DNA from: an uncultured Acidobacteriota bacterium
Lineage (GTDB): Bacteria > Acidobacteriota > Thermoanaerobaculia > Multivoradales > UBA5704
Assembly (NCBI GenBank): GCA_963761645.1
Contig: CAVXIG010000010.1
Span: forward strand, 81,266 to 145,265
DNA length: 64,000 bases
Direction: 5' to 3'
The position numbers and the translations under genes are program-made. This document shows positions 39,849 to 60,077 of the stretch, piece by piece. Numbering within the stretch: position 1 is the stretch's first letter; every line of letters begins with the position of its first letter. Below the pieces are notes generated by a model. That model worked only from the letters and a program-made list of their open reading frames with translations. It searched no databases and was not told the origin of the DNA.

Positions 39849-40892
39849 ATGAAAATCCTGGTCACCGGACACACTGGATACATCGGCAGCGTCATGGTGC
39901 CGCTGCTGCAGGCGGCGGGGCATGAGGTGGTGGGGCTCGACAGCGACTGGTTCGAGCCCTGCCTGCTGGAAGGGCGGCCCGTGGACCGGGCGGTCCCCTC
40001 GCTGCGGAAGGACCTGCGCGACGTCGAGCGCGAGGACCTCGAAGGGTTCGCGGCGGTGATCCATCTCGCCGGGCTCTCCAACGATCCGCTGGGGAACGTC
40101 GACTCCTCGCTGACCTACGAGATCAACGACGCCGCCTCGATCCGCTTCGCCCGGCTCGCCAAGGAGGCCGGGGTCGAGCGCTTCCTCTTCTCCTCCTCGT
40201 GCAGCACCTATGGCGCCGCCGGCGACGACTTCCTGGACGAGAACGCCGCGTTCAATCCCGTCACCCCGTACGGCGTCTCCAAGGTGCGGCTCGAGCAGCA
40301 GCTCAGCGGACTGGCGGACGACCGCTTCACCCCCACCTATCTGAGAAACGCCACCGCCTACGGCGTCTCCCCCCGCCTGCGGGTGGACCTGGTGCTCAAC
40401 AACCTGGTGGGCTACGCGGTGACGACCGGGCGCATCCACCTGATGAGCGACGGCACCCCCTGGCGGCCGATCGTCCATATCGAGGACATCAGCCGCGCCT
40501 TCCTCGCCGTGCTGGACGCCCCCCGCGAGCTGGTGCACGACCAGGCGTTCAACGTCGGCCGCACGGCGGAGAACTACCGCATCCGCGAGCTGGCGGAGAT
40601 CGTGGCCGAGACGGTGCCCGGCTGCGCGATCACCTACGCCGACGACGCCGGCCCGGACAAGCGCTGCTACCGCGTGGACTGCGAGAAGATCCAGCGCGTC
40701 CTCCCCGCCTTCCAGCCCCGCTGGGACGCCCGCCTGGGAGCTCGCGAGCTCTATGACGCCTACCGCGAGGCGGGCCTCACCGCCGGGGAGTTCCTCGGCT
40801 CCCGCTTCATCCGCCTGAAGCGGATCCAGGAGCTCCAGAGCGAGGGGCGGCTGGACGAGGCGCTGCGGTGGCGGGCGCCGGTCACTGTTTAG
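39849..40892 (+). CDS. NAD-dependent epimerase/dehydratase (SDR family)
   Basis: 347 aa intact; MKILVTGHTGYIGS Rossmann motif; YGVSK catalytic YxxxK. Confidence 0.85.
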   Translation: MKILVTGHTGYIGSVMVPLLQAAGHEVVGLDSDWFEPCLLEGRPVDRAVPSLRKDLRDVEREDLEGFAAVIHLAGLSNDPLGNVDSSLTYEINDAASIRFARLAKEAGVERFLFSSSCSTYGAAGDDFLDENAAFNPVTPYGVSKVRLEQQLSGLADDRFTPTYLRNATAYGVSPRLRVDLVLNNLVGYAVTTGRIHLMSDGTPWRPIVHIEDISRAFLAVLDAPRELVHDQAFNVGRTAENYRIRELAEIVAETVPGCAITYADDAGPDKRCYRVDCEKIQRVLPAFQPRWDARLGARELYDAYREAGLTAGEFLGSRFIRLKRIQELQSEGRLDEALRWRAPVTV

Positions 40893-41575
40893 ACCGCAGG
40901 CTCCAGCACCCGCACCACCCAGGTCCCCTTGCGGTTGGTGATCGCGGTCTCCTCCAGGAGCCGGCAGGTCTCCAGCAGGCGCCGGACGATGACGTCCGCC
41001 CGGCGCGAGCGGAAGGTCGAGACGATGAAGACGCCCCCGGCTTCCAGGAACCGCTCGTAGCGGCGGACCGTCCCCACGGGATCGTTGAAGTAGTAGACGC
41101 ACTCGTTGAAGACGATGGCGTCCCAGCGCCCTGGCGGGGTGTAGGACTCGGCGTCGGCGGCGGCGAAGGCGGTCTTCGCGTCCGCCCGGCCGGCGGCCTG
41201 GCGGATGGCGGCCTCGGAGAGGTCGACGCCGAGGTAGCGGGAGCAGCCGAGGGGGCGGAGATGGTCGGCGAGCAGTCCCTCGCCGCTCCCCACGTCGAGC
41301 ACGGAGCCGCCGGCCCTGAGGTGGTGGAGATAGCCGGCGATCACGCTGTAGCGGGCGAGCTCGTCGAGCCCCCGCATGAACTCCCACCCCCCCTCGCGGT
41401 ACTGCTCCTCCCAGACCGCCTTGGACGCCGGCGCGTCCCCCCGGCCGGTGGCCGCCTCGAAGGCATGGACCCGCGCCGCGAGCCGCTCCGCGAACGGGAA
41501 CCGGCGCCCGAAAAGGAACTTGTAATAAACAATGTAGACCGGCTTGAAGGCCCGGCGGCCGAAACGTCCCATCAT
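40889..41575 (-). CDS. class I SAM-dependent methyltransferase
   Basis: ORF 40889..41656; VLDVGSGEGLLADHL motif I; probable start MMGRFGRR... Confidence 0.7.
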   Translation of the reverse strand: MMGRFGRRAFKPVYIVYYKFLFGRRFPFAERLAARVHAFEAATGRGDAPASKAVWEEQYREGGWEFMRGLDELARYSVIAGYLHHLRAGGSVLDVGSGEGLLADHLRPLGCSRYLGVDLSEAAIRQAAGRADAKTAFAAADAESYTPPGRWDAIVFNECVYYFNDPVGTVRRYERFLEAGGVFIVSTFRSRRADVIVRRLLETCRLLEETAITNRKGTWVVRVLEPAV

Positions 41576-41747
41576 CGGGCGCCATCCTAACGCGAGACCG
41601 GGATCTCCATGGCTCTGGCATGTTTTACAGAGAAAGTTGCACATTCCATGTTGCAATCCCAGCTTGATGCTCGTAGCATCGATCCGTTCAAGGGAAGTCC
41701 TGGTTCAACAGAATTTGCGTAGAAGGTCGTAGAAGGAGGCCCGCCGC

Positions 41748-43078
41748 ATGAAGAAGTCGCTCGCCTGTGCCCTCGCTCTCTCCGCGCTGGGGCTCGCCGC
41801 CCCGATGAGAGCCGACACCGTGTTCATCCCCGTCATCGAGCCCGTGAACGCCGCCGGAGCCCCGCTCGCCACCCAGCTCTGGATCTCCAACTTCGACGGT
41901 GTGGAGCGCCCCTACGCCACCGCCTTCCTCCAGGCGGACCGCGCGGGGGCCGCGTCCAAGGCGGCCAGCTCGACCGTACCGGCCGAACGCGCGGTCTATC
42001 TGGAGAAGGTCGCCGCGGCGGGAGAGACCGGCCTGCTGGCGGTCGACGCTTCACCGGAGCTGGCGATCAGCGCCTGGATCAAGAGCACCCATGGCAAGCG
42101 CGTCTTCTATGCCGGCGTGCCGGTGATCACCGCGGAGAACCAGATCGCGGCGGGGACCGCCACCTACCTCAACGGCGTCGGGCGTGACGGCAGCCGCGAC
42201 GTCACCCAGCTCGCCCTGGTCAACCTCGGCGAGACCGCCGCGCAGTGCCAGGTGGACGTCGTGGCCCTCGACGGCTCCCTGGTCCGCAACGCCGGATCGG
42301 TGGAGGTTCCGGCGGGGTCGATGAGCCGGTTCGAGGACGCCCTCGGGCTGCGCGGCGAGGCCGCGGCGACCGCCAGGGTCGCGTGCGACCAGCCGTTCTA
42401 CGCGCTGGCCGCGATGGTCGACAGCAAGACCTCCGAGGTCTCCTTCGTCAACCCGGCGGATACGATCGAGAAGGTCAAGGCGCGAAGGGCGGCGGCGGCC
42501 GCCGCACGGTGATCACCTTCACCCAGAGCGGCAGCTTCCATCTCGCCACCAAGGTGACCCCCAAGAAGATCCTCCGCGTCCCGGTGCCGAAGCAGTTGAA
42601 CGCGTCGCGCGTCAGCGCCGAGTTCGACGTCGTGGCCGGCCCCTGGAACCCGCGGCTGAAGAAGGGCGCGCACAACCTGATCTTCTTCCACCGCGGCCGG
42701 TTCCGCAGCAACACCCTGGCCAACGTCAACGCCTTCGGGCCGAACAACAACAACTTCAAGTCCGCCCAGAACCTCGATCTGCCGGCAAAGTACAGCACCA
42801 GCGCCAAGGTCGGGTTCGCGTTCCAGCAGGGGCAGACCTATCACGTCAGCCTCCTCTACAGCGCGCTGGACAACAAGGTCACCTACGGCATCTACCAGGG
42901 CGGCAAGCTGGTGAAGGGCGGGCAGTATGACGGCAGCGCCCGCAACCATATGATCATGGTGCCGGGGACCGGCCTGGTGGCCGAGTTCGGGAACTACAAC
43001 AATCAGGAGCTCCCCGAGGTGTCGAGCCTGGGCTGGAGGTTCGCCAACTTCCACGTCGAGATCACGCCGGCGATCTGA
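41748..43078 (+). CDS. secreted protein of unknown function, paralog A (frameshift around 42490)
   Basis: Signal peptide MKKSLACALALSALGLAAPMRA; N-domain in ORF 41748..42512 and C-domain in ORF 42245..43078; about 35-40 percent identity to paralog B along full length. Confidence 0.6.
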
Positions 43079-43257
43079 CCGGTCTCTTTCCGGCCGGTAT
43101 CTATTTCCGGCCGGTTATTTCCGGTCATATCCGAGCCCGCCTCTCGTGCGCGAAACGCGCGCGGTGGCGGGCTCGCTGCTTTTGGGGTTGCGTTCCGTCC
43201 CTTGCGGCGATACCATACGGATGTTTCAATATATTGCAGTACGCCGCCTGAAGGAGG

Positions 43258-44664
43258 ATGGATCCGATGAGGAAGCCGCTCGCCGCTCGTCTCGGCGCTG
43301 CTCGTGCCGCCGTTTCGGTCGGAATCTTGCTGCTGGGAACGGCCGGAGCCGCTTTCGCCGGCGCGGTCTATGTTCCGGTCCCCGATCCGATCAGCTCGAC
43401 CGGGAGCACGCACGCGATTCAGATCTGGATCACCAACGGCGGCTCCGACCAGCGCCCGTATACGACGGCGTTCCTGAACGCCGAGAGCGACGGCACGCAG
43501 CGCCCCTCGACTCCGCCGGCGCAGACTCCCCTCGCCGCGGGACGCACCTCGGTCCTCGGCGGCGTCAGCAGCCCCGGCAAATCCGGCCTCCTGGAGATCA
43601 ACGCCAGCGCCGCGATGTCGGTCGACGCCCGCCTGTTCAACACCTCGGCCGACGCGCTGAGCTCTTCGGTGAGCCCGGTCCCGCTGATCTCCTCGGACAA
43701 TATGTTCGACGCCGGCAAGACGGCGGTGGTCCTGGGGCTGCGCCGCGACCCTGCCCGCGGCGACATCACCAGCCTGGGGGTGGTCAACCTCGGCAAGCAG
43801 GCGGCGCAATGCGTCATCAAGTTCGTCCGCGCCGACGGCTCGCCGATCGGCGGCCCGGCGACGTTGACGTTCAAGGCGCTCTCGCTGCGCTCTTTCAACG
43901 ACGCCTTCAGCCTGCTCGGCGAGCAGCAGGCGGCCGACGCGCGCGCGGAGGTGAGCTGCAACCAGCCGTTCTACACCTACGCGACGCTGTTCAGCCAGGC
44001 CAACTCGCAGATCCTCTTCATCACCCCCTCCGCCTCGGGCGCCTCGACGCTGAGCGGACCGGGCGGCACCAATGAGCCGCCGCCGTCCACCACCGGCTCG
44101 GTCGTCTACTCCGTTTCCGGCCTGTTCCACACCGTCACGACCGGCAATGAGAAGAAGACGTACAAGATCGAGCTCGCGAAGGCGATGCCGGCCCGGCGCA
44201 TGGTCCTCGACATGGACTTCGTCCCCGGCCCCTGGAACCGGTCGAAGAGCCCGGGCAACCACGCGATCGTCTGGCTCTATCGCGCCAAGTTCCGCAGCAA
44301 CACGTTCGCCAACGTGAACGCCTTCAGCCCGCCCAAGATGTCGCTCAAGGCGGCGCAGAACGTCGACCTGCCGCCGGCCAACACCACCCAGGACGATCAG
44401 GGGGTCGCCTGGGTGCAGGGGCAGCGCTACCACCTGAAGTACACCTACGACGCCGAGCACGGGTCGGTCACGGCGGTGCTCTCCTCCAACGGAGCGACGG
44501 TCAAGACGCTGCAGTTCCCCAGCACGGCCCCGAACGGGGTGCTCGACATCCCGACGACGGGCATGACGGTGGAGTTCGGCCACTATCCCGGCCAGGAAGG
44601 CCCCGAGGTGCCGAGCTACGGCTGGCAGTACTCGAACCTGCGGATCGAGTTCGTGCCCTACTGA
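43258..44664 (+). CDS. secreted protein of unknown function, paralog B (intact)
   Basis: 468 aa; signal peptide; shared blocks with paralog A: VY/FxPV...QxWIxN...RPYxTAFL, VNLGxxAAQCxx, CxQPFYxxA, GPWNxxxK.GxHxxxxxxRxxFRSNTxANVNAF, EFGxYxxQExPEVxSxGW. Confidence 0.65.
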   Translation: MDPMRKPLAARLGAARAAVSVGILLLGTAGAAFAGAVYVPVPDPISSTGSTHAIQIWITNGGSDQRPYTTAFLNAESDGTQRPSTPPAQTPLAAGRTSVLGGVSSPGKSGLLEINASAAMSVDARLFNTSADALSSSVSPVPLISSDNMFDAGKTAVVLGLRRDPARGDITSLGVVNLGKQAAQCVIKFVRADGSPIGGPATLTFKALSLRSFNDAFSLLGEQQAADARAEVSCNQPFYTYATLFSQANSQILFITPSASGASTLSGPGGTNEPPPSTTGSVVYSVSGLFHTVTTGNEKKTYKIELAKAMPARRMVLDMDFVPGPWNRSKSPGNHAIVWLYRAKFRSNTFANVNAFSPPKMSLKAAQNVDLPPANTTQDDQGVAWVQGQRYHLKYTYDAEHGSVTAVLSSNGATVKTLQFPSTAPNGVLDIPTTGMTVEFGHYPGQEGPEVPSYGWQYSNLRIEFVPY

Positions 44665-46329
44665 TTCGCCGCGTCGTCCGGGTCGCCGTCGGCGGGAGCC
44701 GGCGGCGGCACCCGGACGCCCTTGAGGATGTAGGGGGAATCCGCCCGCACCCAGAAGCCCGACACCTTCCGGTAGCCATAGCTCGGCAGGACGTCCGCCA
44801 CCCTCCCCATGCCGCGGCGGATCCCCCAGATCTGAAAGAAGGCGTCGGGCCGCTGCTCGTTGAGCAGCCGCAGCTCGTTCCATTTCGTGTGGCCGGGCCG
44901 GAAGGTGTCGAAATGGTCCTCGTCGAGCGGCACGATCGGCCGCATGTGCGCGATGGTGCGGTCGTTGTAGCCGAGGATGTCGATCATCTTGTAATCGGAA
45001 AAATAGGCGGGAATGCCGGCCCACGCGGTGGCCACCACGGCGCCGGGCTGAACGAGCCGCCGGAAGCCCAGGATCCCGGCGACCACCCCCTGGTGCCGGC
45101 TGGTCACCGGCGGGCGGTCGGTCAGAGTCAGCAGGCGCCAGAAATCGTCCGTCCGCGGAGAGAGCCAGAGCCCGTCGACGAGCAGCAGGGCGGCGGCGGT
45201 CGCGGCGGCGAGGACGAAGCGCCCGGCCGGATCGTCCTCGACCGCTCCCCTCCGGCTCCGCCAGGCCGCGAGCGCCTCGTTGAGCGTGGCGTTGAACAGC
45301 ACGAAGAGGAGCGGCACGACGAAGGCGATGAAGCGGTTGGCGCGGATCGGCAGGTCGCCATCCCAGGCATCTCCCCCGACATAGACGCTGTAGGCGCAGT
45401 AAAGAACGAAGATCACGGCCGGCAGGATCAGCCGGCGGTTCCGCCGCAGGAAGACGCCGAGCCCGATCCCCGCGACCAGCAGGACGGCCAGGTGGTCGCG
45501 TACGAACTGCGTCAGAACCGTCATCCCGCGCAGCAGGCGCACCGCGAGCGGCACGCCGGTGAGCTTGAGGTAGTACGTGTTCGGCAGCAGATCGTGGAAA
45601 TAGACCCAGCGGAAGACTGCCGTACGCGAGGGTCATGGCGCAGAAGATCCCGAAGCCGGCGAGCCAGCTCCGCTTTCTCACCTGCCAGAACCCTCCCTGC
45701 AGAAGCACGTAGAGCTGGACCGCGGCGACCAGCAGCAGCATGTCCATCCGCAGCAGGAAGGACGCCGCGCAGACGATCCACAGGGCGAGGTTGTGGTCGC
45801 GTCCGGAGTGAGCCGTCGACAGGGCGAGCTGGACGGCGAGCACCGTGAGCAGCGCCTGCAGGCCGGTTTCCATCCCCATCAGCGCCCAGTAGGCGAGCGG
45901 ATAGTAGAAGGCCGTGAGCACGGCGGCGGGCATCCAGTGGCGCGCTCCCGGGGGAGAAAAGTGATCGATCATCAGGCGGCGGGCGGCGATCACGGTGCCG
46001 GCGAGGGTCAGCAGCGAGAGGAGCTGGATCGGCAGACTGCGCTCGCGCAGCGGGATCGGCAGCGCGTTGACCGGAACCATCAGGAAGGTCCAGAGCGGAT
46101 GGGTGAACCCCTCGACCGGCTCTCCCCACCGCGCCCATTCGAGCCCGTGCCCCTCGACCAGGTTGCGGGCGTAGGTCATCGAGATCATCGCGTCGTCGAA
46201 CAGGGAGTAATAGCGCTGCCCCTCGACCTCGAACGAGGAGCGATGGATGAACCATCCCGCCCAGAGCCCGAAGACGAGCAGCAGGACGGCCAGACCGAAA
46301 GAGAATTTCCGGGAAGACGGTTGATCCAT
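44658..46329 (-). CDS. polytopic membrane protein, GT-C-fold glycosyltransferase-like (frameshift around 45625)
   Basis: N-terminal MDQPSSRKFSFGLAVLLLVFGLWAGWFIHRSSFEVEGQRYYSLFDDAMISMTYARNL... multiple TM segments; continues ...YFHDLLPNTYYLKLTGVPLAVRLLRGM... in ORF 44658..45554; the remainder of giant ORF 43003..46329 is antisense artefact. Confidence 0.5.
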
Positions 46330-46332: not shown

Positions 46333-47730
46333 CTATCCTTGCGAAGGAGCCTGCGTGAAGAAGGTCCGGAACGGCCGCCAGTACCGCGCCGCGAGCCCGC
46401 CGGCGGCGAGGGCGGCGGCGATCAGGGAGACGAGGAACCGCTCCCAGCTCCCCGGCGCGAAGAGCCAGGCGGCGAGTGCGAAAAATGGCAACGGAATGAG
46501 ATACAGCAGGGCGAGGTCGCCCAGGAGCGTGCGGAAGCGCGGGCCGAACACGCGGGCGACCTCCCAGGCCATCACGAGATTCCCGATCAGCAGATAGTTC
46601 GCCGCCCCCATCCCCGCGGCGCCCCAGAGCTGGGTGAACCAGATCCCGAAACCCAACAGGGAGACCAGGTTGAGCAGCTCGATCCCGAACCAGGAGCGGT
46701 CCCGGTGTTGTGCCTTGAGCATCTCGCCGCCGAGAATGGTGAACTGATCGAAGAATGGAATGAACGCGATCACCCGCAGGATCGGCACCGCGGCCAGCCA
46801 GTTCTCCCCCATCAGGATCAGGATCACCTTCTCCGCGTTGAAGAACAGAAAATAGCTCGCCACGACCTGGCAGCCCAGGAGCTGGATCGTGCTCAGCCGG
46901 AAGAACTCCAGGAACCGGGGGCGGTCCTCGAGATACTCGACCAGCGTCGGAAAGAGCGCGCGGGGATAGACGATCGTCGCCACCAGGAAGGCGTAACCGT
47001 AGACGCGGGCGTAGAGCCCGACCGTGGCGGTGTCCTGGAACCAGCCGATGATGTAGATGTCGATGTAGTTGACGAGCTGCAGGGTGAGCCAGATGAGGAA
47101 GAGGAACCGGCTGCGGCGGACGAGATCGGAGATCAGGTCCGGCTCGAATCGCAAGGGAATCCTGCCCCAGGCCTTCGCCCAGGAGTAGCCGGCGAGCAGC
47201 GCGGCGCCCAGGAGGTCGGCGATCACCAGGCTCCAGACTCCCCACCCCCGCCAGGCGAGCCCCACCGCGACGGCGGCGATCACGATGCCGCGCCAGATCT
47301 CCGGAGCGATCAGGTTGCCGATCTTCAGCTCCCGTTCGAAGAAGGCGCGAGGCACCACCGCGAGACCGTCCAGCAGGACCCAGACGGCGAAGACCCGCAG
47401 CACCAGCGGCAGCTCGGGGTTGAAGCGGCCGGCGGCCGGCGCCACCGCGATCAGCAGGAGAGTGATCACGACGCCGAGCGTCGCGGTGACGGCGAGGACC
47501 GTGCCGTAGGGGCGGCGCTTGTCGCGCACCAGGTGGTACGGCAGGCCGAGGTCGCGGACGGCGGAGGCGACGGTCACGATCCGCAGGGCGAGCTCGTAAA
47601 GGCCATGCCCTTCGGGGAGGATCAGCCGCGCGAGGGCGATCTTCGCCCCGAAGTTGATCCCCAGGCGGGCGAGCTGGATGGCGTAGGAGGCGAACGTCGA
47701 GCGCAGGATGCGCTGCTCGGTGGTGCCGCC
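46333..47730 (-). CDS. wzx: Wzx-type polysaccharide flippase (MOP superfamily); N-terminus extends upstream of the annotated GTG, true start unresolved
   Basis: ORF 46333..47577 plus in-frame upstream ...RILRSTFASYAIQLARLGINFGAKIALARLILPEGHGLYELALRI... (P-x-x-F/H-G-x-Y-x-LAL signature of MOP N-termini); about 12 TM segments. Confidence 0.65.
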   Translation of the reverse strand, partial: GGTTEQRILRSTFASYAIQLARLGINFGAKIALARLILPEGHGLYELALRIVTVASAVRDLGLPYHLVRDKRRPYGTVLAVTATLGVVITLLLIAVAPAAGRFNPELPLVLRVFAVWVLLDGLAVVPRAFFERELKIGNLIAPEIWRGIVIAAVAVGLAWRGWGVWSLVIADLLGAALLAGYSWAKAWGRIPLRFEPDLISDLVRRSRFLFLIWLTLQLVNYIDIYIIGWFQDTATVGLYARVYGYAFLVATIVYPRALFPTLVEYLEDRPRFLEFFRLSTIQLLGCQVVASYFLFFNAEKVILILMGENWLAAVPILRVIAFIPFFDQFTILGGEMLKAQHRDRSWFGIELLNLVSLLGFGIWFTQLWGAAGMGAANYLLIGNLVMAWEVARVFGPRFRTLLGDLALLYLIPLPFFALAAWLFAPGSWERFLVSLIAAALAAGGLAARYWRPFRTFFTQAPSQG

Positions 47731-47752: not shown

Positions 47753-48892
47753 CTAGAGGAGGTTCGCCCAGCGCGCCCATTTTTCGGTGAGATCCATGCC
47801 GGTCTCGAAATCGAAGGCCGGCCGGTAGCCCAGGAGCCGCTTCGCCTTGTCGATGCGGACGTGGGTCCGGGGGCGGAAGAAGCCGATCATCTCGGGACTC
47901 AGCGGGTGGATCGGCAGCTCGGCGGCGGCGCGGGACGGCCGGCCGCCGCTCCCCAGGCCGGCCTTGATCCGCTGCTGCACGCTCTCCGGCAGCACCGTGC
48001 TCGCCATCTCGCGCAGCCAGACCCCTTCGCGGGTGCGCTCGATCCGCTCGCGGATCGGCTGCTCCGACTTGAGGATGCGGAGCGCCTCCCCCACCGCGTG
48101 CGGCTGCGCCCGCTTCCACTGGCGCCAGAAGGCGAGCGCCTCGGCCTCGGTCATGTCCACCGTCCGCCGCTCCATCCCGAGCATCCGCTCGAAACGGCCG
48201 TAGAGCTCCCGCCAGGTCACCGGCTCCTCGCCGGAGATCAGGAACGCCTCCCCCACCGCCGCGTCCTCGACCGCCGCGAGGAGCATGGCGCTCACCAGGT
48301 CGTCCACATAGACGGCGTTGCCCAGGCCGTCGCCGCCGTTGATCAGGATCTGCCGGCCGGCCTTGAGCGCCCGGATCACCGACTCGGTCCAGACCCCGCC
48401 GTAGGGTCCGTAGACCGCCGTCGGCTGCAGCACGGCGACCGGCAGCCCCGAGGTGAGGGCGATCTGCTCGGCCTCCAGCTTGCTGTCCGAGTAGGCGTTG
48501 CCGAAGCGGCGCCGGGGAGCGGTCTCGTCGAGGTCGCCGTCGGTGGTCTGGCCGTAGACCATCAGCGTGCTCAGGTAGACGATGCGTCCGACGTTGGCGG
48601 CCCGGGACGCCTCCAGCACCCGCCGCGTCCCCTCGCGGTTGATGTAGGCGCGGTGCTTCTGGCTGCCGGAGGTGCCGTAGGCGCAGTGGAAGACGATGTC
48701 GCACCCCTGGATGGCCACCGCGAGATCGGGGGAGCTGGTGATGTCGCCGCGCAGCACGGTCACCGGGAAGCGGGCGAGACGGGCCGCCGCCGCCAGGTTG
48801 CGCACCAGGACGCGCACCTCGGCGCCATGCTCGACGATCAGGCGCTCGACCAGCCGGCCGCCGATGAAGCCGGTGGCGCCGGTGACCAGCAC
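47753..48892 (-). CDS. NAD-dependent epimerase/dehydratase (SDR family) with C-terminal extension
   Basis: 379 aa intact; MLVTGATGFIGGRLVERL; YxxxK. Confidence 0.8.
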   Translation of the reverse strand: MLVTGATGFIGGRLVERLIVEHGAEVRVLVRNLAAAARLARFPVTVLRGDITSSPDLAVAIQGCDIVFHCAYGTSGSQKHRAYINREGTRRVLEASRAANVGRIVYLSTLMVYGQTTDGDLDETAPRRRFGNAYSDSKLEAEQIALTSGLPVAVLQPTAVYGPYGGVWTESVIRALKAGRQILINGGDGLGNAVYVDDLVSAMLLAAVEDAAVGEAFLISGEEPVTWRELYGRFERMLGMERRTVDMTEAEALAFWRQWKRAQPHAVGEALRILKSEQPIRERIERTREGVWLREMASTVLPESVQQRIKAGLGSGGRPSRAAAELPIHPLSPEMIGFFRPRTHVRIDKAKRLLGYRPAFDFETGMDLTEKWARWANLL

Positions 48893-48920: not shown

Positions 48921-49961
48921 TCACGAGACCCGCTCCCGAGCGGGGAGGACCGACCAGGGGAGCTCCAGGAGCTGGCGCTGCGCGTAGCAGGCCTCGATCA
49001 GCGCCAGCGACCGGCGCCCCTCGGCTCCCGGGATGAACGGCTCGCGCCGCAGGCGGATCGCGCGCGCGAAGTCGTCGATCTGCCGCACGAAGACGTCGGT
49101 GAAGTTGAGCGCCGAGCCGCGGTCTCCACGAGCGTGGCCGGCCAGCGAGACCTCGCTGCCGGCGATCGACAGGCGGATCTCGGGATCGGGATCCCAGACG
49201 CCGACCTCGAGCCTGGCCCGCTCCCCTTCGAAGACGCAGGTGTTGCGGAGGGTGCGCGTGCGGCTGACCTCGACCTCCCCCTGGATGCCGGCGGCGGTGG
49301 CGAGGGTCATCTCGCAGTCCGACTCGACGCCGCCCATGGCGTCGTCCCGGTACCCGGTCACCGTCAGGTCCCCCAGCCACCAGAGCAGCAGGTCGAGCAC
49401 GTGGACGCCGAAGTCGGCCAGCACGCCGCCGCCCGCCATCTCCTTCTTGAGCAGGAAGTCGGTGGCGAACGGCCAGCGGGGGATCACCCCCTGGCGCAGG
49501 TCGAAGCCGCGGATCTCGCCGATCAGGCCGTCGCGCAGCAGGTTGCGGACGAACAGCGAGGCGTCGAAGAAGCGGAAATCGAGCCCCACGGCCAGCACGG
49601 CGCGGCCGGTGCGGGCGGCGTCGATCATCTCGTCGCACTCGCGCACGTTCATCGCCATCGGCTTCTCGACCAGCACGTGGACGCCCCGCCGCAGCAGGTC
49701 GATCGAGACCGGCGCGTGCAGGCTGTTCGGCAGGGCGACGACGGCGGCCTCGACCTTCCCCGGCAGACCCTTGAAATCGGTCGCCACCTCGGGCACGCCG
49801 AAACGCTCGGCGAGGGCGCGGGCGCGCTTCTCGTCCGCGTCCACGAGCACGGCGGCCTCGACCCGGTCGGAAGCCGCGATGGCGGGCAGATGGTGGATCT
49901 GCGCCACGGCGCCGCAGCCGACGACGGCGAGGCGGACCTTGGATGTGTTCGGTTTCGTCAT
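48921..49961 (-). CDS. Gfo/Idh/MocA family oxidoreductase (sugar-nucleotide dehydrogenase-like)
   Basis: 346 aa intact; VRLAVVGCGAVAQIHHLPA Rossmann; EKPMA motif. Confidence 0.85.
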   Translation of the reverse strand: MTKPNTSKVRLAVVGCGAVAQIHHLPAIAASDRVEAAVLVDADEKRARALAERFGVPEVATDFKGLPGKVEAAVVALPNSLHAPVSIDLLRRGVHVLVEKPMAMNVRECDEMIDAARTGRAVLAVGLDFRFFDASLFVRNLLRDGLIGEIRGFDLRQGVIPRWPFATDFLLKKEMAGGGVLADFGVHVLDLLLWWLGDLTVTGYRDDAMGGVESDCEMTLATAAGIQGEVEVSRTRTLRNTCVFEGERARLEVGVWDPDPEIRLSIAGSEVSLAGHARGDRGSALNFTDVFVRQIDDFARAIRLRREPFIPGAEGRRSLALIEACYAQRQLLELPWSVLPARERVS

Positions 49962-52640: not shown

Positions 52641-52986
52641 GGTTCGGCTCCACCTCGACGCCGACACGTCGAGGAAGGCTCTTCATCAGGCACTGATCGA
52701 TCGAGGACACGACGTCACACGGACGTCCTCAGACTGGGTCCAGAAGGACGCCAGTGACGAGATTCAGCTACTTTCCGCCACAGCGCAAGGACGCTGCATC
52801 TTCACCTTCAACATCCGGGACTTCACGGTTCTGTCGAGATCGCATCCACAGCACCGGGGGATCGTGCTGGCGGCGCAAAAGAGCTGGACGCTCTCTGGAT
52901 TGATTGCCGCCTTAGACCGATTTCTCTCGGAAAGCGATACCCGAGACGTGGAAGGCCGCCTGCTCTGGCTGAACTCCTGGCGCTGA
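52633..52986 (+). CDS. DUF5615 family PIN-like protein (toxin-like), second copy
   Basis: MPEVRLHLDADTSRKALHQALIDRGHDVTRTSSDWVQKDASDEIQLLSATAQGRCIFTFNIRDF...; ATGCCTGA start/stop overlap with upstream antitoxin. Confidence 0.6.
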   Translation: MPEVRLHLDADTSRKALHQALIDRGHDVTRTSSDWVQKDASDEIQLLSATAQGRCIFTFNIRDFTVLSRSHPQHRGIVLAAQKSWTLSGLIAALDRFLSESDTRDVEGRLLWLNSWR

Positions 52987-53001
52987 CTCCCCAACTTCCG
53001 A

Positions 53002-54212
53002 CTACTCCACCAGAGCTAATGGAGTCGCGGCCCTCTCCTCCGCCGGCACCGCATACATCCGGAACAGCTCCTCGTACCGGCCAATCGTCACCTCGGCCGA
53101 AAAGTGCCGCTCGATCTCCTCGACCGGCCGGACGAACCGGACGCGGTCGCTCAGGACCTCGACGATCCCCTCGCCCAGGGCCCGCCAGTCGTCGCGCGGC
53201 ACGATCTTTCCCATGCCGGTGAGTTGCACGGGGACCCGGCCGCCCGGGAGTGTCGGTCATCACGACCGGGGTGCCGCAGAGCATGGCCTCGACCTGCACG
53301 AGGGCGAAGCACTCGGTGTCGCTCGGCAGGGCGAGGACGTCGCAGGCGGCATAGAAGTTCGCCATCTCCTGGGTCGAGGGAACAATTCCTAAGGAAGACG
53401 AGCTGATCCCGGAAGCGGTCCACCAGCGGCTGGTGGCGCGGCCAGTAGGACTCATAGGGGATCTCGTGCTGGCCGGCGAAGACGATCCGCGCGCCGGGGA
53501 AGGTGCGGTTGACCACCTCCAGCGAGCGGATCAGCAGGTCCGGCCGCTTCTCCTCGACGAAACGGCCGGCGAAACGATGATCGGGCCGCCGCCGGGGGCC
53601 CAGGCCTGGCGAAGCTCGCGCACTTTCTCGCATCCGGCACCGGCACGTCCACGAACGGCGGGATGACCACCACCTTCTCCAGGTAGGGGCTCAGGTACTC
53701 CGAATGCCGGGCGTAGTCCAGCGTGTGGCAGACGAGCGCCGGAGCCACGTTCGCCAGGGTGCGGTAGAAGGCGAACATCACCGTCGTGATGATCCGGTTG
53801 AGCGCCCCCGCGGGCAGCACCAGGTCGCCGTGATGGGTGACGACGACCCGCTTGCCCGCCGCCCGGGCGGCGAGACCGATCAGGGCCGTCTCCAGCATCG
53901 GCGTGTGGACGCTCACCACGTCGTGCTCCCGGATCAGCCGGGCGAGCGCCCTGGGATACCCGGGCAGGATCATGCCGCGGCTGATGCCGAAGGGGAGCGG
54001 CCAGAGGCGGATCACCCGGACGCCGTTCTCGATCGACTCGCCGAGCGGCGTGTCCGCGGAGTGGCGGGCGCAGAGGACAGTGACCCGGTGGCCGCGCGCC
54101 GCCAGCCCCTCGGCAAGCTGCCGCACGTAGAGCGTCAGGCCCGTCCGGTGCGGCACGTAATAGAGCAGGCAGATCAGGATGCTCGGGCTGACGTCTCGAT
54201 CGTGCTGGGCAT
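53002..54212 (-). CDS. family 4 (GT-B) glycosyltransferase (about 4 frameshifts)
   Basis: Pieces in ORFs 53452..54339 (...ILICLLYYVPHRTGLTLYVRQLAEGLAARGHRVTVL...), 53151..53633 (...FAGRFVEEKRPDLLIRSLEVV...), 52823..53455 (...EMANFYAACDVLALPSDTECFALVQVEAMLCGTPVVMTDTPG... E-x7-E region) and 53002..53229. Confidence 0.65.
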
Positions 54213-54339
54213 GATAAAAGTTATTGCAAGAAACCCGAGGAGCCCGCGGAGGGGGGGGAGCGCTTGAAGAGGAACGCGGCATGCTACCATCCGCCGCGAA
54301 TTCCGGGCAATCGCCGCCAACCGCACCCCTACCCGACAC

Positions 54340-56292
54340 CCATGGTCCACCCCGACTCCCAAGCCGAGCCGAAGCGCTGGATCGGGATCGCCCTCCTCGG
54401 GCTGCTCCTCGTCAGCTTCGCCCTGCGGACCTGGGACGCCAGCCAGGGGCTCAACGCCAGCCGGTACTATGACGAGCGCTTCCCGCTGAAGAACGTCTCC
54501 GGGCTGCTCCTGCACGGCGAGCTCCGCCCCCGGCACGCCTTTTATCTGAGCCTCTCCTACCTGCCCCAGACGGCCGTGCTGGCCGCCAGCCAGTGGCTCT
54601 TCGAAGTCACCCGCTACGAGCCGTTCTCGATCTACAGCGCGACGAGCGACGGCTACTCCCCCACCGCCTACTGGCTCTGCCGGATGATCAACGTGATCTA
54701 CGGGACGCTGAGCCTCTGGCTCCTCTTCCTGATCGGCAGGCGCATCTACTCATCCGGAGTGGGGCTGCTCGCGGCGGCCATCCTGGCGGCGTTCGGCCGC
54801 CACGTGCTGAGCTCGTCGGAGTTCAAGCCGGACATCCTCGTCATCTTCCTGGTGACGCTGACCTTCCTCTGGACCCTCGGCGCCGCCTTCCGCCCCTCGC
54901 TCCGCCGCTTCCTGCTGGTGGGCGTCGGGGTCGGGCTCGGCGTCTCGGCCAAGTACACGGGGATCGCGGGGGCGATCCCGATCACCGCCGCGGTCCTCGC
55001 GGAAGGGCGCCGCGACCGCCGGCAGTGGCTCTGGCTGCTGCTCGCGGGCGTCGCCTCGGTGGTCACCTTCGTGGCGCTCAACCCGTTCCTCGACGTGGTG
55101 TTCGAGTTCATCCCCAAGCTGGTCAACGGCTACGCGGCCAAGGGGGTCGAGGAGCGGAGCAATCACTGGGTGGTGTTCGAGCGGCAGGTGCGGTTCCTGA
55201 TCGAGCAACACGGCCCGATCGTCACCGCGTTCGTGGCCCTCGGCGTTATCTGGCTCGCCGGCGGGCTCCTGTGGAGGATCTTCCGTCCAGCTCTCCGGGG
55301 TTTCTCATGAAGACGGCCGGGAGCGGCGCCTCGGCTCGATCCTCGTCCTCAGCCTGCTCCTCGGCTACTCCGCCCTGCACGCGCTGGGGATGACGCTGTT
55401 CCGCGGCCAGAACTACCTGCCGGTCGTCCCCTTCTCCTCGCTGGTGGCCGCCTGGGCGATGGTGGAGCTCTGGCGAGTCCTGGCGGCCCGCCTCCCCTGG
55501 CTGGCGTGGCGGCCGGTCGCGGCGCTGGCCGGGCTGGCGGTGGGCGCCGCCCTCCTCGCGCAGCAGGGGACGATCGTCTACACCCGCGTGGTGCCCACCA
55601 CGTTCGAGCGGACGAACGACGCGCTGCTCGCCGAGCTCGATCCGGTCGGCCTGCGCCACGTGGTCTACGAGCGGGGGATGGGCGCCTTCGACGCCGGCGG
55701 CAAGCCCCGCCGGCCGCTGCTGACCCCGGTGCCCCGGCTCACCGCTCTCGCGCCGGACTTCCTCGACCGGGCGGACATCGAGATCTTCCCGCAGCGGCGG
55801 CTCCAGGGACCGGACGCCGATTTCTACCGCGCCCGCGTCGCCCGCCTGCGCAAGAAACAGGTCGAGATCGTCGGCGACCTCTGGTTCCGCAGGCGCGGCG
55901 AGCCGCTGGTGATCCTCCGCCACCCCTGGACGCTCGCCCGGGACCCCGTCGATCTCCTGGTCAGGCGTCCGGAGGGGGACCCGCCTTATCTGGTGGGCCG
56001 CCTGCCCGCCGGGATCGCCCGGCCGGGAGAGGCCGTCTCGCTGCTGCTCTGGATCCCCCGCGACTCGGGGGACCGCGAAGCGTACGAGCTGCGGCTCGAT
56101 CCGGGCGGCCAGCCGGTGGCGGTGTTCGACACCGGCCGCCGCCTCAACCGCCTGTTCCGGACCAGCCCGCGCTTCGCGCTGACCGGGACCGAGCTGCGGG
56201 TGCGGGTCCCCTCGACCCCGGTCGACCGCCCGCGGGGCTTCGGCCTGGAGATCTACCCGTGGCGGCCGGGGCCGGCTCCGGCACGGCCTTGA
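54340..56292 (+). CDS. GT-C-fold membrane glycosyltransferase (family 39/ArnT/PMT-like) with C-terminal soluble domain (frameshift around 55300)
   Basis: ORF 54264..55310 (about 10 TM helices; ...RYYDERFPL... first-loop acidic motif) continues in ORF 55390..56292 (...LGMTLFRGQNYLPVVPFSSLVAAWAM...). Confidence 0.6.
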
Positions 56293-57566
56293 AGGCGTCG
56301 AAGCCGCGCCGGCTCTCCGCCGCCGGCCTGCTCGGGGGGAGCGCCCTCCTCCTCGTCACGCTCAATCTGGCGAGCGCCCTCCACTTCGCCTTCCATGTCG
56401 CCATGGCGCGCCTCCTCGGCCCCGCCGGCTATGGGGCGATCGCGGCGCTGCTCGCCATTCTCTACGTGCTGAACGTCTTCGCCGAGTCGGTGGCTACCGT
56501 GCTCGCCCGCTACACCGCGCACGAGCCCGATCCGGGACGGCTGCACGACCTCCTCCGCCGGGGGCTGCGCAAGGGGGGCCGGGCGACGCTGGCGCTGGCC
56601 GCGCTCTACCTGACGGCGGCGGTGCCGCTCGGGCGCTGGCTGCGCATCCCCTATCCGCTGATGGCCCTGTTCGGCCTGTCGCTGGCCGGCGTCGGGCTGC
56701 TGCCGGTGCACCGCGGGGCGCTCCAGGGGTGGAAGCGCTTCGGCGGTCTCGGGCTCAACATGATCTGGGAGGTGCTGGCCAAGCTCGCGATCGGCATCGG
56801 GCTGGTCTGGATCGGTTTCGGAGAGTACGGCGCGGTGGCCGGAATCGCCCTCAGCCTCTGCTTCGCCTTCGCCGTCTCCTATCTCCCGTTGCGCGACGTC
56901 TACCGCACTCCCGCGACGCCGGCCGAGGCGCCGGACATCTACCGCTACAGCCTGCCGGTGTTCGCGGTGACGGCCACGGTGATGGGCTTCTACAGCCTCG
57001 ACGTCCTGCTCGCGCGGGCGTTCTTCCCCGATGCGGTGGCGGGTGGGTACGCGGTGGCCTCGTTCCTCGGCAAGTCGATCCTGCTCGGCACGGCGGCGGT
57101 CACCAAGGCGGCGTTCCCGCACTCGGCGGCAGCGGCGCGGAGCGGCCGGTCGCGGCACGTCCTCGCCGGCACCCTGGGGCTGCTCGCCCTCTGCGTGACG
57201 CCGGTGATCGCCGTTTTCGGACTCTTTCCGGAGCCGCTGATGCGGGCGGTGGGCGGCCGGGGCTACCAGGGGGCGGCGGAGCTCGTGCTGCCGCTGGGGA
57301 TCGCGATGGCGCTGATGTCGTTCAGCAACGCCTTCCTGCTCTACCGGCTCTCCACCGGCCGGCTGCGCTTCTGGGGGGTGCTTTCCTTGCTGATTCCCAT
57401 CGAGGCGGCGGCTTTGACGCTGTTTCGTGGCTCGACGGTGGAATTCGCCTGGACGGTGGCGGCGATGAACGGGGTGTTCCTGCTGGTCGCTGCGGGGGTC
57501 GCCGTCCTCAGTTCCCCCCCGCCACATACCCCAGCGCCTTCAGATCTTCCTCTTCCTTCGGCGTGA
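56289..57566 (+). CDS. second MOP-superfamily flippase-like membrane protein
   Basis: TTG start in TTGA overlap with previous stop; ...FHVAMARLLGPAGYGAIAALLAILYVL... N-terminal MOP signature; about 12 TM helices; real part of ORF 55506..57566. Confidence 0.55.
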   Translation: MKASKPRRLSAAGLLGGSALLLVTLNLASALHFAFHVAMARLLGPAGYGAIAALLAILYVLNVFAESVATVLARYTAHEPDPGRLHDLLRRGLRKGGRATLALAALYLTAAVPLGRWLRIPYPLMALFGLSLAGVGLLPVHRGALQGWKRFGGLGLNMIWEVLAKLAIGIGLVWIGFGEYGAVAGIALSLCFAFAVSYLPLRDVYRTPATPAEAPDIYRYSLPVFAVTATVMGFYSLDVLLARAFFPDAVAGGYAVASFLGKSILLGTAAVTKAAFPHSAAAARSGRSRHVLAGTLGLLALCVTPVIAVFGLFPEPLMRAVGGRGYQGAAELVLPLGIAMALMSFSNAFLLYRLSTGRLRFWGVLSLLIPIEAAALTLFRGSTVEFAWTVAAMNGVFLLVAAGVAVLSSPPPHTPAPSDLPLPSA

Positions 57567-58962
57567 GCTTGGGCTGGTGGCCCGTGGAACGGCCCGGCGG
57601 CACCTCGGAGCCGTTGGCGGCCAGCCAGGCGTTCTTGAGCCGCCGGGCCATGCGGTTGACCTCGCGCGGATCGTTCACCGGCTGGACGCTCCCTCCACTC
57701 CAGCGCACCAGGGTGAGCCGCGGCGGATCGCCGCGCCGGCCGGAGAGCGGCAGAACGCTCCCGAACGCCTTCTCCAGCCGGCCGAAGATCGCCTGCACCG
57801 GCTCGGCCAGCGGCGGCTCGGGGGTGCCGCCGATCCCCGCGTAGCGCGCCCGGTAGTAGTCCGGCTCGGGAGGCGCGAAACGGCTCTCCCAGAGGAGCTG
57901 GAGGTCGCCGTCGACCAGCGAGAAGCGGTTGACGCCGTCGCCCAGGTAGAGCTCGGAGAGCGCTCCCTTGTCGAACGGCTGGAAGAGGCTGGGCGCCACG
58001 CCGGGCTCCGGCTTGCCGCCGGCGGCCTCGATCAGCGTCGGCGCCACCCGCACGTTGGCGACGTGGCTGGCCGGCATCGCGAGCTTGCGCTGGAAGCCCG
58101 CCGGCAGCTTGACCACCAGCGGCACCTCGACCAGCACGTGCCCGAGATTGCCGCCGTGGGCGATCTGGCCGTTCTCGCCGAACTCCTCGCCATGGTCGGA
58201 GGTGACGACGAGGAGGGTCTTGTCCCACTGGCCGCTCTTTTTCAGCGCGGCCAGCAGCCGGGAGAGCACCTGGTCGGCGTAGGCGGCGTTGAGCCGGTAC
58301 ATGGCCCGGAAGACCCGCTCCTGATCGGCCGGCAGCTTCACCGCCGGGTCGTAGTAGGGCTCGAGGTCGAGCGGGCGCACCTGCTTCGGGAGATCGGGCG
58401 GGATCTCGTCGAGCCGGTCGAGGAGAAAGTCGCGGCGGACGTACGGCGCGTGCGGCGCCAGGATGTGGATCCAGACGAAGTCCCGCCCCCCTTTGAGCTC
58501 CTCCAGGTAGCGCTCGGCCCGCTTCCCTTCTTTCAGATAGCGGAAGTCGTCGAACCCCTGGGAGTAGCCGAACTGCGACTCCAGCCAGTGGTTGGAGCGG
58601 AAGGCGGCGGTGCGGTACCCCGCGTGCTTCAGCGCCTCCGGGAGGGTGACGAAGCGGTCGTCGAGCACCGAGCGGTCGCTCGCCCAGCTCCGCGACCGCC
58701 AGGGCTGGAAGCCGGTGAAGATCGAGGCCATCGACGGCACCGTCCAGCTCGACGGCGAGATCGCCCGGCCGGCCCAGGTCGCCTCCCGGGCGAAACCGGA
58801 GAGCGCTGGCATCACTTTGGCAGGTCCGCCGAGGGCGCCGACGGTGTCCGCCCGCAGGGCGTCGATGGTGATCAGCACGATCGGGCCGCGATGGACCGGC
58901 ACCTCGGGAGCCCGGGAGCAGCCGAGAGCCAGGGCGCAGAGCGCGATCGTAGAGAGTAGGCG
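57508..58962 (-). CDS. sulfatase-like hydrolase/transferase lipoprotein (alkaline-phosphatase superfamily; no CxPxR)
   Basis: Lipobox ...ALALGCS; ...IVLITIDALRADTVG...; site corresponding to sulfatase CSPSRASLLTG reads WTVPSMASIFTG; ...VVTSDHGEEFGENGQIAHGGNLGHVLVEVPLVVKLP. Confidence 0.65.
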   Translation of the reverse strand, partial: RLLSTIALCALALGCSRAPEVPVHRGPIVLITIDALRADTVGALGGPAKVMPALSGFAREATWAGRAISPSSWTVPSMASIFTGFQPWRSRSWASDRSVLDDRFVTLPEALKHAGYRTAAFRSNHWLESQFGYSQGFDDFRYLKEGKRAERYLEELKGGRDFVWIHILAPHAPYVRRDFLLDRLDEIPPDLPKQVRPLDLEPYYDPAVKLPADQERVFRAMYRLNAAYADQVLSRLLAALKKSGQWDKTLLVVTSDHGEEFGENGQIAHGGNLGHVLVEVPLVVKLPAGFQRKLAMPASHVANVRVAPTLIEAAGGKPEPGVAPSLFQPFDKGALSELYLGDGVNRFSLVDGDLQLLWESRFAPPEPDYYRARYAGIGGTPEPPLAEPVQAIFGRLEKAFGSVLPLSGRRGDPPRLTLVRWSGGSVQPVNDPREVNRMARRLKNAWLAANGSEVPPGRSTGHQPKLTPKEEEDLKALGYVAGGN

Positions 58963-59037
58963 GTAGCAGTTTCTTGAGGACAAGACGAAATTTCTCCACT
59001 CCGGCGAGGGTTCCGGAACTGCGGTAGGATACCTTAC

Positions 59038-60077
59038 GTGCGTACACCACCCGTCCGCTTGTTCAGGGGGATCTTCACCGGCTTCCTCCTTTGCTCCGCC
59101 GTCGCCGCCTTCGGCCAGGACGAGCCTGTCCAGGCGTTTCGTACCCTCAGCGGTCGATGAGGCCCTGACGCTGCTCGCCGCGGCGGGCGGCGCCCGGATC
59201 GAGCTGCCGGGAGGGCGCGCGGTGCAGGTGGCCCTGCCGGAGCGCGCCGAGCTCACCGCCCTGGCGGCGATCGACGGCGGCTGGGTGGCCGCCGGAACCG
59301 TGCGGGACGCGAGCGGCCGCCAGCGTCTGTTCCTGCTGCGCGGCAACGACCGCGCCTCCCGGCCGCTGGCCGAGCCCCCCGGGCAGGAGGGGCGGCAGCG
59401 GCGCGGACGCGGTGTTCCTGGTGGACGGCGGCCGGCTCGCCGGCCTCGCCTGGCTCGAAGGGGAGGACGACCGCTCCCTCTCCGTGCGCTCCGCCCTCTG
59501 GAATGGCCAGCGCTGGCAGGCCCCCGAGCGCGTCTCCTTCCCGGGTCCGGGGAGCCAGGTCGCGCTCGCCGGCGCCGTGCTGACCGACGGCTCCTGGCTG
59601 CTCGCCTGGAGCGCCTTCGACGGCGAGGACGACGAGATCGTCTGGGCCCGCCGCGCGGGCAACGCCTGGCAGCCGGTGAAGCGCCTCTCGCCCGGCAACT
59701 CCGTGCCCGACATCACCCCCGCTCTCACCGCCACCGCGGACGGCGGCGCCCTGATCGCCTGGAACCACTTCGACGGCAAGAGCTACGAGCTGCGGATGGC
59801 CCGCTTCAAGGGCGAAGGCTGGCGCGACGAGCGCGCGGCCGCTCCCGCCGGCTCGCTCTTCCCGAAGTTCCTCGGCGGCTCGCGCCTGCTCTACGTCAAC
59901 GCCGTGCCCCACGGCTGGACGGTGCTCGACCTCGACGCCGCGGGGCGCGTGAAGGCGCGGGCGACGGTCGCCTCCCCGCTGGACCGCCCCGTGGTCAGCT
60001 TCGAGGGGAGCACGGTCCGGATGCGCTGGCCCGCCGAGAAGCGGCAGGCTTCGGCTTCCCTGGAAAGAATGCCGTGA
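59038..60077 (+). CDS. secreted hypothetical protein with repeated LxAW..FDG units (frameshifts around 59145 and 59400)
   Basis: GTG start; signal peptide MRTPPVRLFRGIFTGFLLCSAVAAFGQ; ...LLAWSAFDGEDDEIVWARRAGNAWQ...LIAWNHFDGKSYELRMARFKGEGW... Confidence 0.45.

Follow-up and report, generated by a model that had tools for sequence, protein, structure and literature searches.

The described proteins closest to the pair reported here are the legume lectins (soybean agglutinin, 2sba; Erythrina lectin, 1ax0), the pentraxins and galectins, and the carbohydrate-binding modules (CBMs) on glycoside hydrolases and lyases, such as the CBM32 module of the polysaccharide lyase family 7 (PL7) protein AlyQ (5xnr). 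A functional analogy is offered by enzymes encoded in polysaccharide loci, such as the glycoside hydrolase family 16 (GH16) protein ExoK in succinoglycan loci and AlgL in alginate operons. We analysed two adjacent genes, gene 1 and gene 2, in a 64,000-nucleotide stretch of DNA from an uncultured Acidobacteriota bacterium of the class Thermoanaerobaculia (contig CAVXIG010000010.1; hereafter the window). Both encode proteins with export signals, they are paralogues, and they lie in a locus for a Wzx-dependent glycan. It is possible, though short of probable, that the pair are exported carbohydrate-binding accessory or envelope proteins devoted to the glycan made by this locus.

With the legume lectins, pentraxins and galectins, the C-terminal domain of the family (C-domain) shares a predicted 13-strand, two-sheet jelly-roll (Foldseek probability 1.0, template modelling score, TM, of 0.5-0.6). 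It differs from them in its identity of 7-16%, in giving no sequence-profile match and in being fused to an unrelated N-terminal beta region; with about 190 residues it is shorter than the legume lectins (about 235), and the invariant motifs of the family match none of the described lectin families. Like the CBMs and their enzymes, of which AlyQ is an example, the proteins are built of beta-sandwich modules with a flexible Gly/Pro/Ser/Thr linker, and the full-length gene 2 model aligns with AlyQ over 407 columns. However, the root-mean-square deviation (rmsd) of this alignment is 17.7 Å, so that only the individual domains are alike, and the Acidobacteriota proteins, in contrast to CBM-bearing enzymes, have no recognisable catalytic module and match no Pfam or NCBIfam family. 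Secretion, a concanavalin A-like fold and a place in a Wzx-dependent cluster are shared with the jelly-roll enzymes of exopolysaccharide loci (ExoK, PL7/PL14 lyases), but the family is without their defining catalytic motifs (Q(I/V)H in 2/62 members) and no sequence-profile relation was found. The best full-length Foldseek match was the baseplate protein of mycobacteriophage Douge (8zdo_a, E 1.5e-6, 367 columns), and many tail proteins were returned from BFVD; the rmsd to 8zdo_a is nevertheless 26.6 Å with a TM of 0.23-0.32 and, unlike phage tail proteins, the family has a signal peptide and a cellular, syntenic context with no phage genes nearby.

Gene 1 and gene 2 encode paralogous proteins with export signals

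The restored gene 1 protein (its frame break is described below) aligned with the gene 2 protein along the whole mature length, residues 25-441, with 36% identity over 431 columns (BLASTP, E 8e-92). Taken separately, the N-terminal half of gene 1 was 35% identical to residues 37-258 of gene 2 (E 2e-40) and the C-terminal half 40% identical to residues 282-467 (E 2e-48). The paralogy is far above the chance level. The initial annotation, made from the sequence letters, had described two adjacent same-strand genes sharing conserved blocks; the values above establish that the paralogy and the quoted blocks are real. The adjacency and the plus strand also stood, whereas gene 1 forms the single open reading frame (ORF) of about 440 residues then described only after the frame break is corrected. 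From these alignments, gene 1 and gene 2 appear to be ancient duplicates within one undescribed family of Sec-exported proteins.

The signal peptides claimed for both proteins were recovered by direct reading. At each N-terminus a basic, charged n-region is followed by a hydrophobic segment and then by a cleavage site of AxA-like type (MRA before D, AFA before G), as expected for Sec export; the signal sequences read MKKSLACALALSALGLAAPMRA ahead of D and MRKPLAARLGAARAAVSVGILLLGTAGAAFA ahead of G. The AlphaFold2 model of gene 2 is disordered over residues 1-32, with a predicted local distance difference test (pLDDT) below 50. A Shine-Dalgarno sequence, GAAGGAGG, lies eight bases 5' of the gene 1 ATG. 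Upstream of gene 2, AAGGAGG (43251-43257) stands directly against the ATG at 43258, and another ATG follows nine bases further downstream, at 43267; because the first ATG is abutted by AAGGAGG and the methionine of the second, Met4, is nearly invariant across the family alignment, 43267 is the probable true start.

The 180-nt spacer between the genes (43076-43260) has a folding energy of −91.1 kcal/mol, with z = −5.5 against shuffled sequences. It contains a GC hairpin of 42 nt (43133-43174) with a short U tract after it; a weaker hairpin (43078-43098) was all that a simple scan for terminators picked up. The larger hairpin may be an intrinsic terminator and, if so, gene 1 and gene 2 would be transcribed separately. 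Further upstream in the spacer, a repeat or hairpin containing CCGGCCGG shows indel variation from strain to strain.

Predicted structure of the family

Full-length gene 2 was modelled with AlphaFold2 from a 62-sequence family alignment (mean pLDDT 82.6). After the signal peptide, residues 35-258 form an all-beta N-terminal region of 16 strands in the model; a disordered linker (260-279) connects it with the C-domain (280-468), which is likewise all-beta, and this agrees with the two-domain build proposed before. Modelled alone, the C-domain gave a 13-strand, two-sheet jelly-roll with a pLDDT of 94.8 and a predicted TM (pTM) of 0.91.

Foldseek returned 296 PDB matches for the C-domain at E<=1e-3. 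The top matches were legume lectins (query-normalised TM, TMq, 0.57-0.59), namely soybean agglutinin 2sba_A (E 1.2e-6, TMq 0.57) and Erythrina lectins, and others were Limulus pentraxin, the N-terminal carbohydrate-recognition domain of galectin-9 (N-CRD; target-normalised TM, TMt, about 0.6), the NC4 (TSPN) domain of collagen IX and the receptor-binding domain HCR/F of a botulinum toxin (3rsj). For the lead matches, i.e. legume lectins, pentraxin and galectin-9, the probability was 1.0, and E ranged from 1e-6 to 2e-5 and TM from 0.5 to 0.6. The full-length searches of PDB and BFVD, which were dominated by C-domain matches, gave the same families together with AlyQ (CBM32 and PL7 lyase), the lectin module of PilC and the phage baseplate protein; the BFVD matches are annotated as concanavalin A-like, LamG, GH16 or phage tail proteins. 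In its predicted structure the C-domain shows the features of the concanavalin A-like fold, namely a superposable two-sheet jelly-roll of about 12-14 strands. As the matches are led by legume lectins, pentraxin and galectin, we place the C-domain by its modelled fold in the concanavalin A-like lectin/glucanase superfamily, and in no described family within it. This lends fold-level support to the earlier suggestion of lectins, and neither the sequence nor the structure searches assigned both halves to a well-characterised family.

The N-terminal region, for which neither Pfam nor PDB sequence searches gave a match, probably comprises two modules, because the first 130 or so profile positions are missing from some paralogues. 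With hhalign the modules N1 and N2 and the C-domain gave probabilities <=1.3%, and an internal repeat or a common origin of the three was rejected. Across 50+ loci, the linkers of gene 2 and gene 3 types start with a conserved SASGASTL and continue with low-complexity Gly/Pro/Ser/Thr repeats of variable length, and those of gene 1 type are Ala/Glu/Lys-rich and without SASGASTL.

Size and distribution of the family

The initial annotation had recognised no known domain, and the profile searches agreed. Neither Pfam nor NCBIfam has a family for gene 2 or for either half of gene 1, and when each of the 62 aligned members was compared with Pfam, nothing rose above threshold (RHS_repeat, CARDB and FNG as noise, E>=0.01). 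The Lectin_legB, galectin, Pentaxin and Laminin_G profiles matched none of the 62 members even at E<=1, and for the N-terminal region the candidate CARDB, of the Ig-like bacterial adhesion domains, matched only 2/62, below threshold, with a best E of 0.022. PDB sequence searches returned noise with the single protein (E about 0.9) and no match at E<=10 with the 62-sequence profile.

A word-indexed protein search found 183 clusters, all 'hypothetical', and those with a named source all came from metagenome-assembled genomes (MAGs) of Thermoanaerobaculia or Acidobacteriota. An exhaustive profile search of 1.84 billion representatives yielded 1271 proteins at E<=1e-3, 254 of them at E<=1e-30; nearly all of the best 150 matches are 435-480 residues long and align end to end. 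The family is thus sizeable, uniform in architecture and unannotated. Every match recovered came from a MAG or a metagenome, so that no cultured carrier of the family is known, and a literature search on Thermoanaerobaculia and exopolysaccharide turned up community surveys only.

When one genome was scanned for each GTDB species, 55 loci were obtained. Full-length members were found in 53 of them, one locus per contig, all in Thermoanaerobaculia, Thermoanaerobaculaceae, Holophagales or unclassified Acidobacteriota MAGs, and the proposed lineage specificity holds in this phyletic distribution. The other two loci carry the C-domain only, in a lipoprotein from Pseudomonadota (30% identical) and a 780-residue protein from Planctomycetota (25% identical). 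The family occupies a single locus in each genome. Most often (30 loci) this locus has two copies; 10 loci have three copies, 5 have four and 10 have a single copy, most of these last on truncated contigs. The copies are on the same strand in all loci but one. The four-copy loci are L025, L027, L036, L044 and L049 (Thermoanaerobaculia, Holophagales). Their copies include a shorter paralogue type that is without the first module and has extra cysteines (e.g. FGPNGPCDFTV... and CPAGAVCFD... at the domain junction).

At least four paralogue types have thus arisen within the family. Their signatures are kept across distant lineages, with AEFGNYNNQxLPEVSSLGW in gene 1 type and EFGHYxxQxGPEVxSYGW in gene 2 type, and this retention fits distinct retained roles. 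Between loci, gene 2-type proteins are 45-68% identical, compared with roughly 62-91% for the flanking enzymes, a faster divergence that is expected of exposed binding proteins.

Conserved residues and catalytic motifs

In the family alignment, the invariant residues of the C-domain are H291, W326, H335, R342, N352, N354, H392, Y397, H442, E450 and W456, and its motifs are GPWN, NHxxxWxxR, FRSNTxANVNAF, YHxxYxYD and EFGHYxxQxGPEVxSYGW. Polar residues are invariant not only across paralogues but also in distant homologues (H335, R342, R346, N348, N354, Y391/Y397, E450), and such a set of His, Tyr, Arg and Asn is typical of beta-elimination lyases. These residues point to another explanation, which we consider doubtful: the proteins would be enzymes (lyase, hydrolase or transglycosylase) that cut or remodel the locus polymer outside the cytoplasm, with the catalytic site in the jelly-roll or in the N-domain. 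Among the structural matches are also PL7 AlyQ (5xnr), the PL14 alginate lyase 5gmt and, from BFVD, a GH16 protein. In the loci of relatives there are genes for Gfo/Idh/MocA, DegT and an acetyltransferase, as is typical of pathways to amino or uronic sugars.

The defining motifs of GH16 and PL7 are, however, absent or rare. Of the three conserved blocks of PL7 alginate lyases, regular-expression search of the 62 family C-domains found R(S/T)E(L/V)R in 0/62, Q(I/V)H in 2/62 and YFKAG(V/I)YNQ in 0/62; the GH16 motif ExDxxE or ExDxE occurred in 0/62. No member matched Pfam Alginate_lyase2. Gene 1 type proteins have N in place of H442 and L in place of G448, and lectins, not enzymes, head the structural matches and are the most frequent among them. 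The Planctomycetota homologue also argues against catalysis, since its homologous module is attached to another catalytic domain. In this GH-A-type protein a signal peptide and a Pro/Thr linker precede an apiosidase/GH5-like catalytic region (Pfam Apiosidase, DUF6298, Cellulase); a He_PIG Ig domain comes next, and the C-domain homologue stands at the extreme C-terminus, the usual position of a CBM. W326, H335, R342, R346, N348, Y391, Y397 and GPEVPS(Y/F)GW are common to this protein, the Pseudomonadota lipoprotein and the family. A search seeded with the distant C-domain homologues found only 9 unannotated proteins, without Pfam domains.

The pair lies inside a glycan locus

The conserved gene order is epimerase (+), methyltransferase (−), the paralogue array (+) and, convergent to it, GT-C-like protein, Wzx, SDR epimerase and Gfo/Idh/MocA oxidoreductase. 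Where the upstream flank exceeds 5 kb, the methyltransferase and the epimerase were each present in 34/39 loci; where the downstream flank exceeds 9 kb, 29/33 loci had one or more of the GT-C-like, Wzx, epimerase and Gfo genes (GT-C-like 22/33, Wzx 20/33, SDR epimerase 23/33, Gfo 21/33). This strong co-occurrence, which the initial annotation had proposed to examine for Wzx and GT-C genes, physically links the family to a Wzx-dependent glycan locus. The pair had been placed immediately upstream of the polysaccharide locus; the linkage was borne out, but the pair sits within the locus rather than before it, as the epimerase and methyltransferase are syntenic on its other side. The loci of relatives also hold DegT aminotransferase, acetyltransferase, deacetylase, GT4 and PMT_2 genes, with a GDSL esterase in L001.

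The convergent GT-C-like gene encodes in relatives a 556-residue membrane protein with no Pfam, NCBIfam or PDB match and 1894 homologues at E<=1e-3, several of which carry the automatic Joint Genome Institute (JGI) label 'arabinofuranosyltransferase'. It is probably an undescribed GT-C-type transferase and possibly the polymerase of the locus. With the PMT_2 protein there are two GT-C-type membrane proteins in the locus, and the Wzx flippase is weakly similar in NCBIfam to O-glycosylation flippases. These genes bear on a third explanation, an unlikely one to our judgement, by which gene 1 and gene 2 would be abundant envelope or surface-layer subunits that co-assemble and are glycosylated by the GT-C-type transferases, e.g. 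on the SASGASTL/Ser-Thr-Pro linker; such proteins could be lectins as well, the two roles not being exclusive. The conserved Ser/Ala/Gly/Thr motif in the otherwise disordered linker of gene 2 and gene 3 types is in keeping with it, as are the several co-retained paralogues, their faster divergence than that of the neighbours, the strong Shine-Dalgarno sites and the possible terminator after gene 1. However, the linker of gene 1 type has a different composition and no such motif, and about a third of the loci with enough flank are without the GT-C-like gene. Neither a sign of abundance or lattice formation nor an anchoring motif (SLH, PEP-CTERM, lipobox) was found.

At the edge of the locus, 38107-38692 (+) encodes the ribonuclease toxin BrnT (Pfam E 2.4e-23) and, overlapping it downstream, an antitoxin of CopG type (E 1e-3). 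The segment 37880-38707 has no counterpart in the relative L002, and the adjacent aligned segments are 92-96% identical; the pair is apparently a strain-specific toxin-antitoxin insertion.

A frame break in gene 1

Gene 1 spans 1331 nt, a length not divisible by three. Its first ORF runs from the ATG at 41748 to a TGA at 42510-42512, and the remainder lies in another frame up to the stop at 43076-43078; the switch (tblastn, frame 3 to frame 2) falls between about 42480 and 42506, in the GC-rich linker-coding sequence ...GGCGGCGGCGGCCGCC-GCACGG.... The relatives L002 (98% identical) and L001 (83% identical) have at the same place an uninterrupted gene 1 of 447 and 444 residues, and DNA alignments with both show a single base absent at about 42504 of the window. 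The N-terminal part is 94% identical to residues 1-248 of the L002 orthologue and the C-terminal part 93% identical to residues 258-447.

Tblastn of 17 intact orthologous proteins of L002 and L001 against the window revealed a single frame switch in 7/17 genes between 36.7 and 52.2 kb. The broken genes encode a 235-residue protein, a 149-residue DoxX/MauE-like protein, an O-methyltransferase, gene 1, the GT-C-like membrane protein, a nucleotidyltransferase-like protein and a second methyltransferase. Within 36700-52250 the breaks lie at about 36984, 37780, 39052, 42504, 45618, 50180 and 52100; both sides of each keep roughly 75-99% identity to the orthologue, and the exactly placed indels (39052, 42504, 45618) are isolated single bases. 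As seven of 17 nearby genes are broken once while their orthologues are intact, and as many separate inactivations in one conserved biosynthetic locus are implausible, an assembly indel is the economical and most likely explanation of the gene 1 break. That gene 1 is a true pseudogene in the source organism, with the pair functionally reduced to gene 2, is distinctly improbable: the window does show a premature stop and a frame change, and about 10 related loci have one family copy, but the two halves of gene 1 retain their 93-94% identity without other damage, six more genes within 16 kb, including the flippase-locus transferase and sugar enzymes, show the same isolated type of break, and the single-copy loci are mostly on truncated contigs. 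A programmed frameshift was rejected, the orthologues being in-frame, the site not a slippery motif and six neighbours similarly broken.

The assembly of 36700-52250 looks indel-prone, and an ORF-based reading of this region is therefore unreliable; the source assembly should be handled accordingly. The ORF at 51378-52640 (+), for instance, matches a class I methyltransferase with a C-terminal DUF433 (residues 353-398). Since its orthologue has 288 residues only and a frame break lies near 52100, this fusion is probably an artefact masking a separate small DUF433 gene.

Table 1 Features of the paralogue pair and of the surrounding glycan locus (positions of the window)
Feature	Position	Strand	Description or basis
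NAD-dependent sugar epimerase/dehydratase	39849..40892	+	Pfam Epimerase, E 6e-41; 79-100% identity across loci
S-adenosylmethionine (SAM)-dependent methyltransferase, divergent	40889..41656	−	Pfam Methyltransf_23, E 1e-17
Gene 1, frame-restored	41748-43078	+	443 residues after adding one base
Gene 1 N-terminal ORF, 254 residues	41748..42512	+	Signal peptide (residues 1-22), all-beta N-domain, start of Ala/Lys-rich linker; premature TGA
Frame break in gene 1	42480..42506	+	One base missing at ~42504 compared with relatives: CGGCCGCC-GCACGG vs CGGCCACCGGCTCG
Gene 1 C-terminal part, shifted frame	42506..43078	+	Jelly-roll (concanavalin A-like) domain and stop codon
GC-rich hairpin, gene 1-gene 2 spacer	43133..43183	+	GAGCCCGCC...GGCGGGCUC then CUUUU tract; RNA folding
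Gene 2, intact 468-codon ORF	43258..44664	+	ORF list
Gene 2 signal peptide, residues 1-34	43258..43359	+	Direct reading; pLDDT <50 at residues 1-32
Gene 2 N-terminal all-beta domain, residues 35-258	43360..44031	+	AlphaFold2 block, pLDDT 73-95, 16 strands; conserved Cys185-Cys234 pair
Gene 2 inter-domain linker, residues 259-279	44032..44094	+	SASGASTL start; pLDDT <50 at 260-279
Gene 2 C-terminal domain, residues 280-468 and stop	44095..44664	+	Concanavalin A-like jelly-roll; pLDDT 94.8, pTM 0.91
GT-C-like polytopic membrane protein, convergent (556 residues in relatives)	44658..46329	−	tblastn frames -2/-3; frame-broken at ~45618
Wzx-type MOP flippase	46333..47730	−	Pfam Polysacc_synt_3, E 1e-31; NCBIfam MOP flippase
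SDR epimerase/3-beta-HSD-type enzyme	47753..48892	−	Pfam
Gfo/Idh/MocA sugar oxidoreductase	48921..49961	−	Pfam
GT4 glycosyltransferase, split in ORF list	52823..53455 and 53452..54339		Glycan-locus gene, downstream
PMT_2-family GT-C, possibly continuing in 55390..56292	54264..55310		Glycan-locus gene, downstream
Two sulfatase/alkaline-phosphatase-superfamily genes	57508..59346 and 61751..62605	−	Glycan-locus genes, downstream

Discussion

The explanation that we tentatively prefer is that gene 1 and gene 2 are exported carbohydrate-binding proteins. As lectin- or CBM-like proteins they would recognise the glycan that the Wzx-dependent locus assembles, at the outer face of the cytoplasmic membrane, and could, for example, hold, organise or anchor the polymer in the envelope. 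The binding sites of the paralogues would be related without being alike, or the proteins would assemble into a hetero-oligomer. This is supported by the confidence of the C-domain model together with best PDB matches that are sugar-binding jelly-rolls, by the absence of the GH16 and PL7 motifs and the CBM position of the homologue in the Planctomycetota enzyme, and by a variable Gly/Pro/Ser/Thr linker as found in modular secreted carbohydrate-active proteins. The multi-copy retention, the conserved synteny with glycan genes, the paralogue signatures and the fast divergence point in the same direction, and nothing observed so far contradicts what is expected of secreted lectin-like proteins in polysaccharide loci.

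Several points weigh against carbohydrate binding. Enzymes (GH16, GH7, PL7, PL14 and others) and modules that bind proteins (pentraxin, LamG, TSPN) have the concanavalin A-like fold as well, so that the fold alone is no proof of sugar binding, and the resemblance of the C-domain is at fold level only (7-16% identity, TM <=0.6, rmsd 5-9 Å by Foldseek). Most of the invariant residues are polar (four His, two Arg, several Asn, Tyr and Glu), a pattern no less typical of a catalytic or metal site than of a lectin site. The N-terminal half is equally conserved, and carbohydrate binding by the C-domain does not explain it. Three stand-alone C-domain homologues in other phyla have no glycan genes in their surroundings, and no family member comes from a cultured organism. 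As the stand-alone homologues sit in unrelated contexts, the link to glycan synthesis belongs to the multi-module Acidobacteriota family and not to the C-domain as such.

Beyond a role in binding, the one to four paralogues might constitute a novel extracytoplasmic accessory of the Wzx-dependent pathway, i.e. a hetero-oligomeric scaffold of lectin fold that would act as template, anchor or organiser when the polymer is built into a glycoprotein surface layer and that might itself be O-glycosylated on the SASGASTL linker. We regard this as improbable; to our knowledge, such a scaffold has no counterpart among the accessory proteins of the Wzx/Wzy, synthase or ABC pathways.

The pair represents an undescribed sequence family whose C-terminal half has, as predicted, a well-known fold, in a new domain combination with a fixed place in a lineage-specific glycan locus. 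It merits a domain-of-unknown-function entry, with separate models for the N-terminal and C-terminal regions. Should the proteins be enzymes, they would be the founders of a new carbohydrate-active enzyme family; if they bind the polymer, they would be usable as polymer probes. Thermoanaerobaculia and Holophagales are widespread, poorly known Acidobacteriota of soils and sediments, and a family of 1271 clusters that is invisible to Pfam and NCBIfam, bound to a glycan locus and of predicted lectin-type fold offers a handle on how they build and organise their surface polysaccharides.

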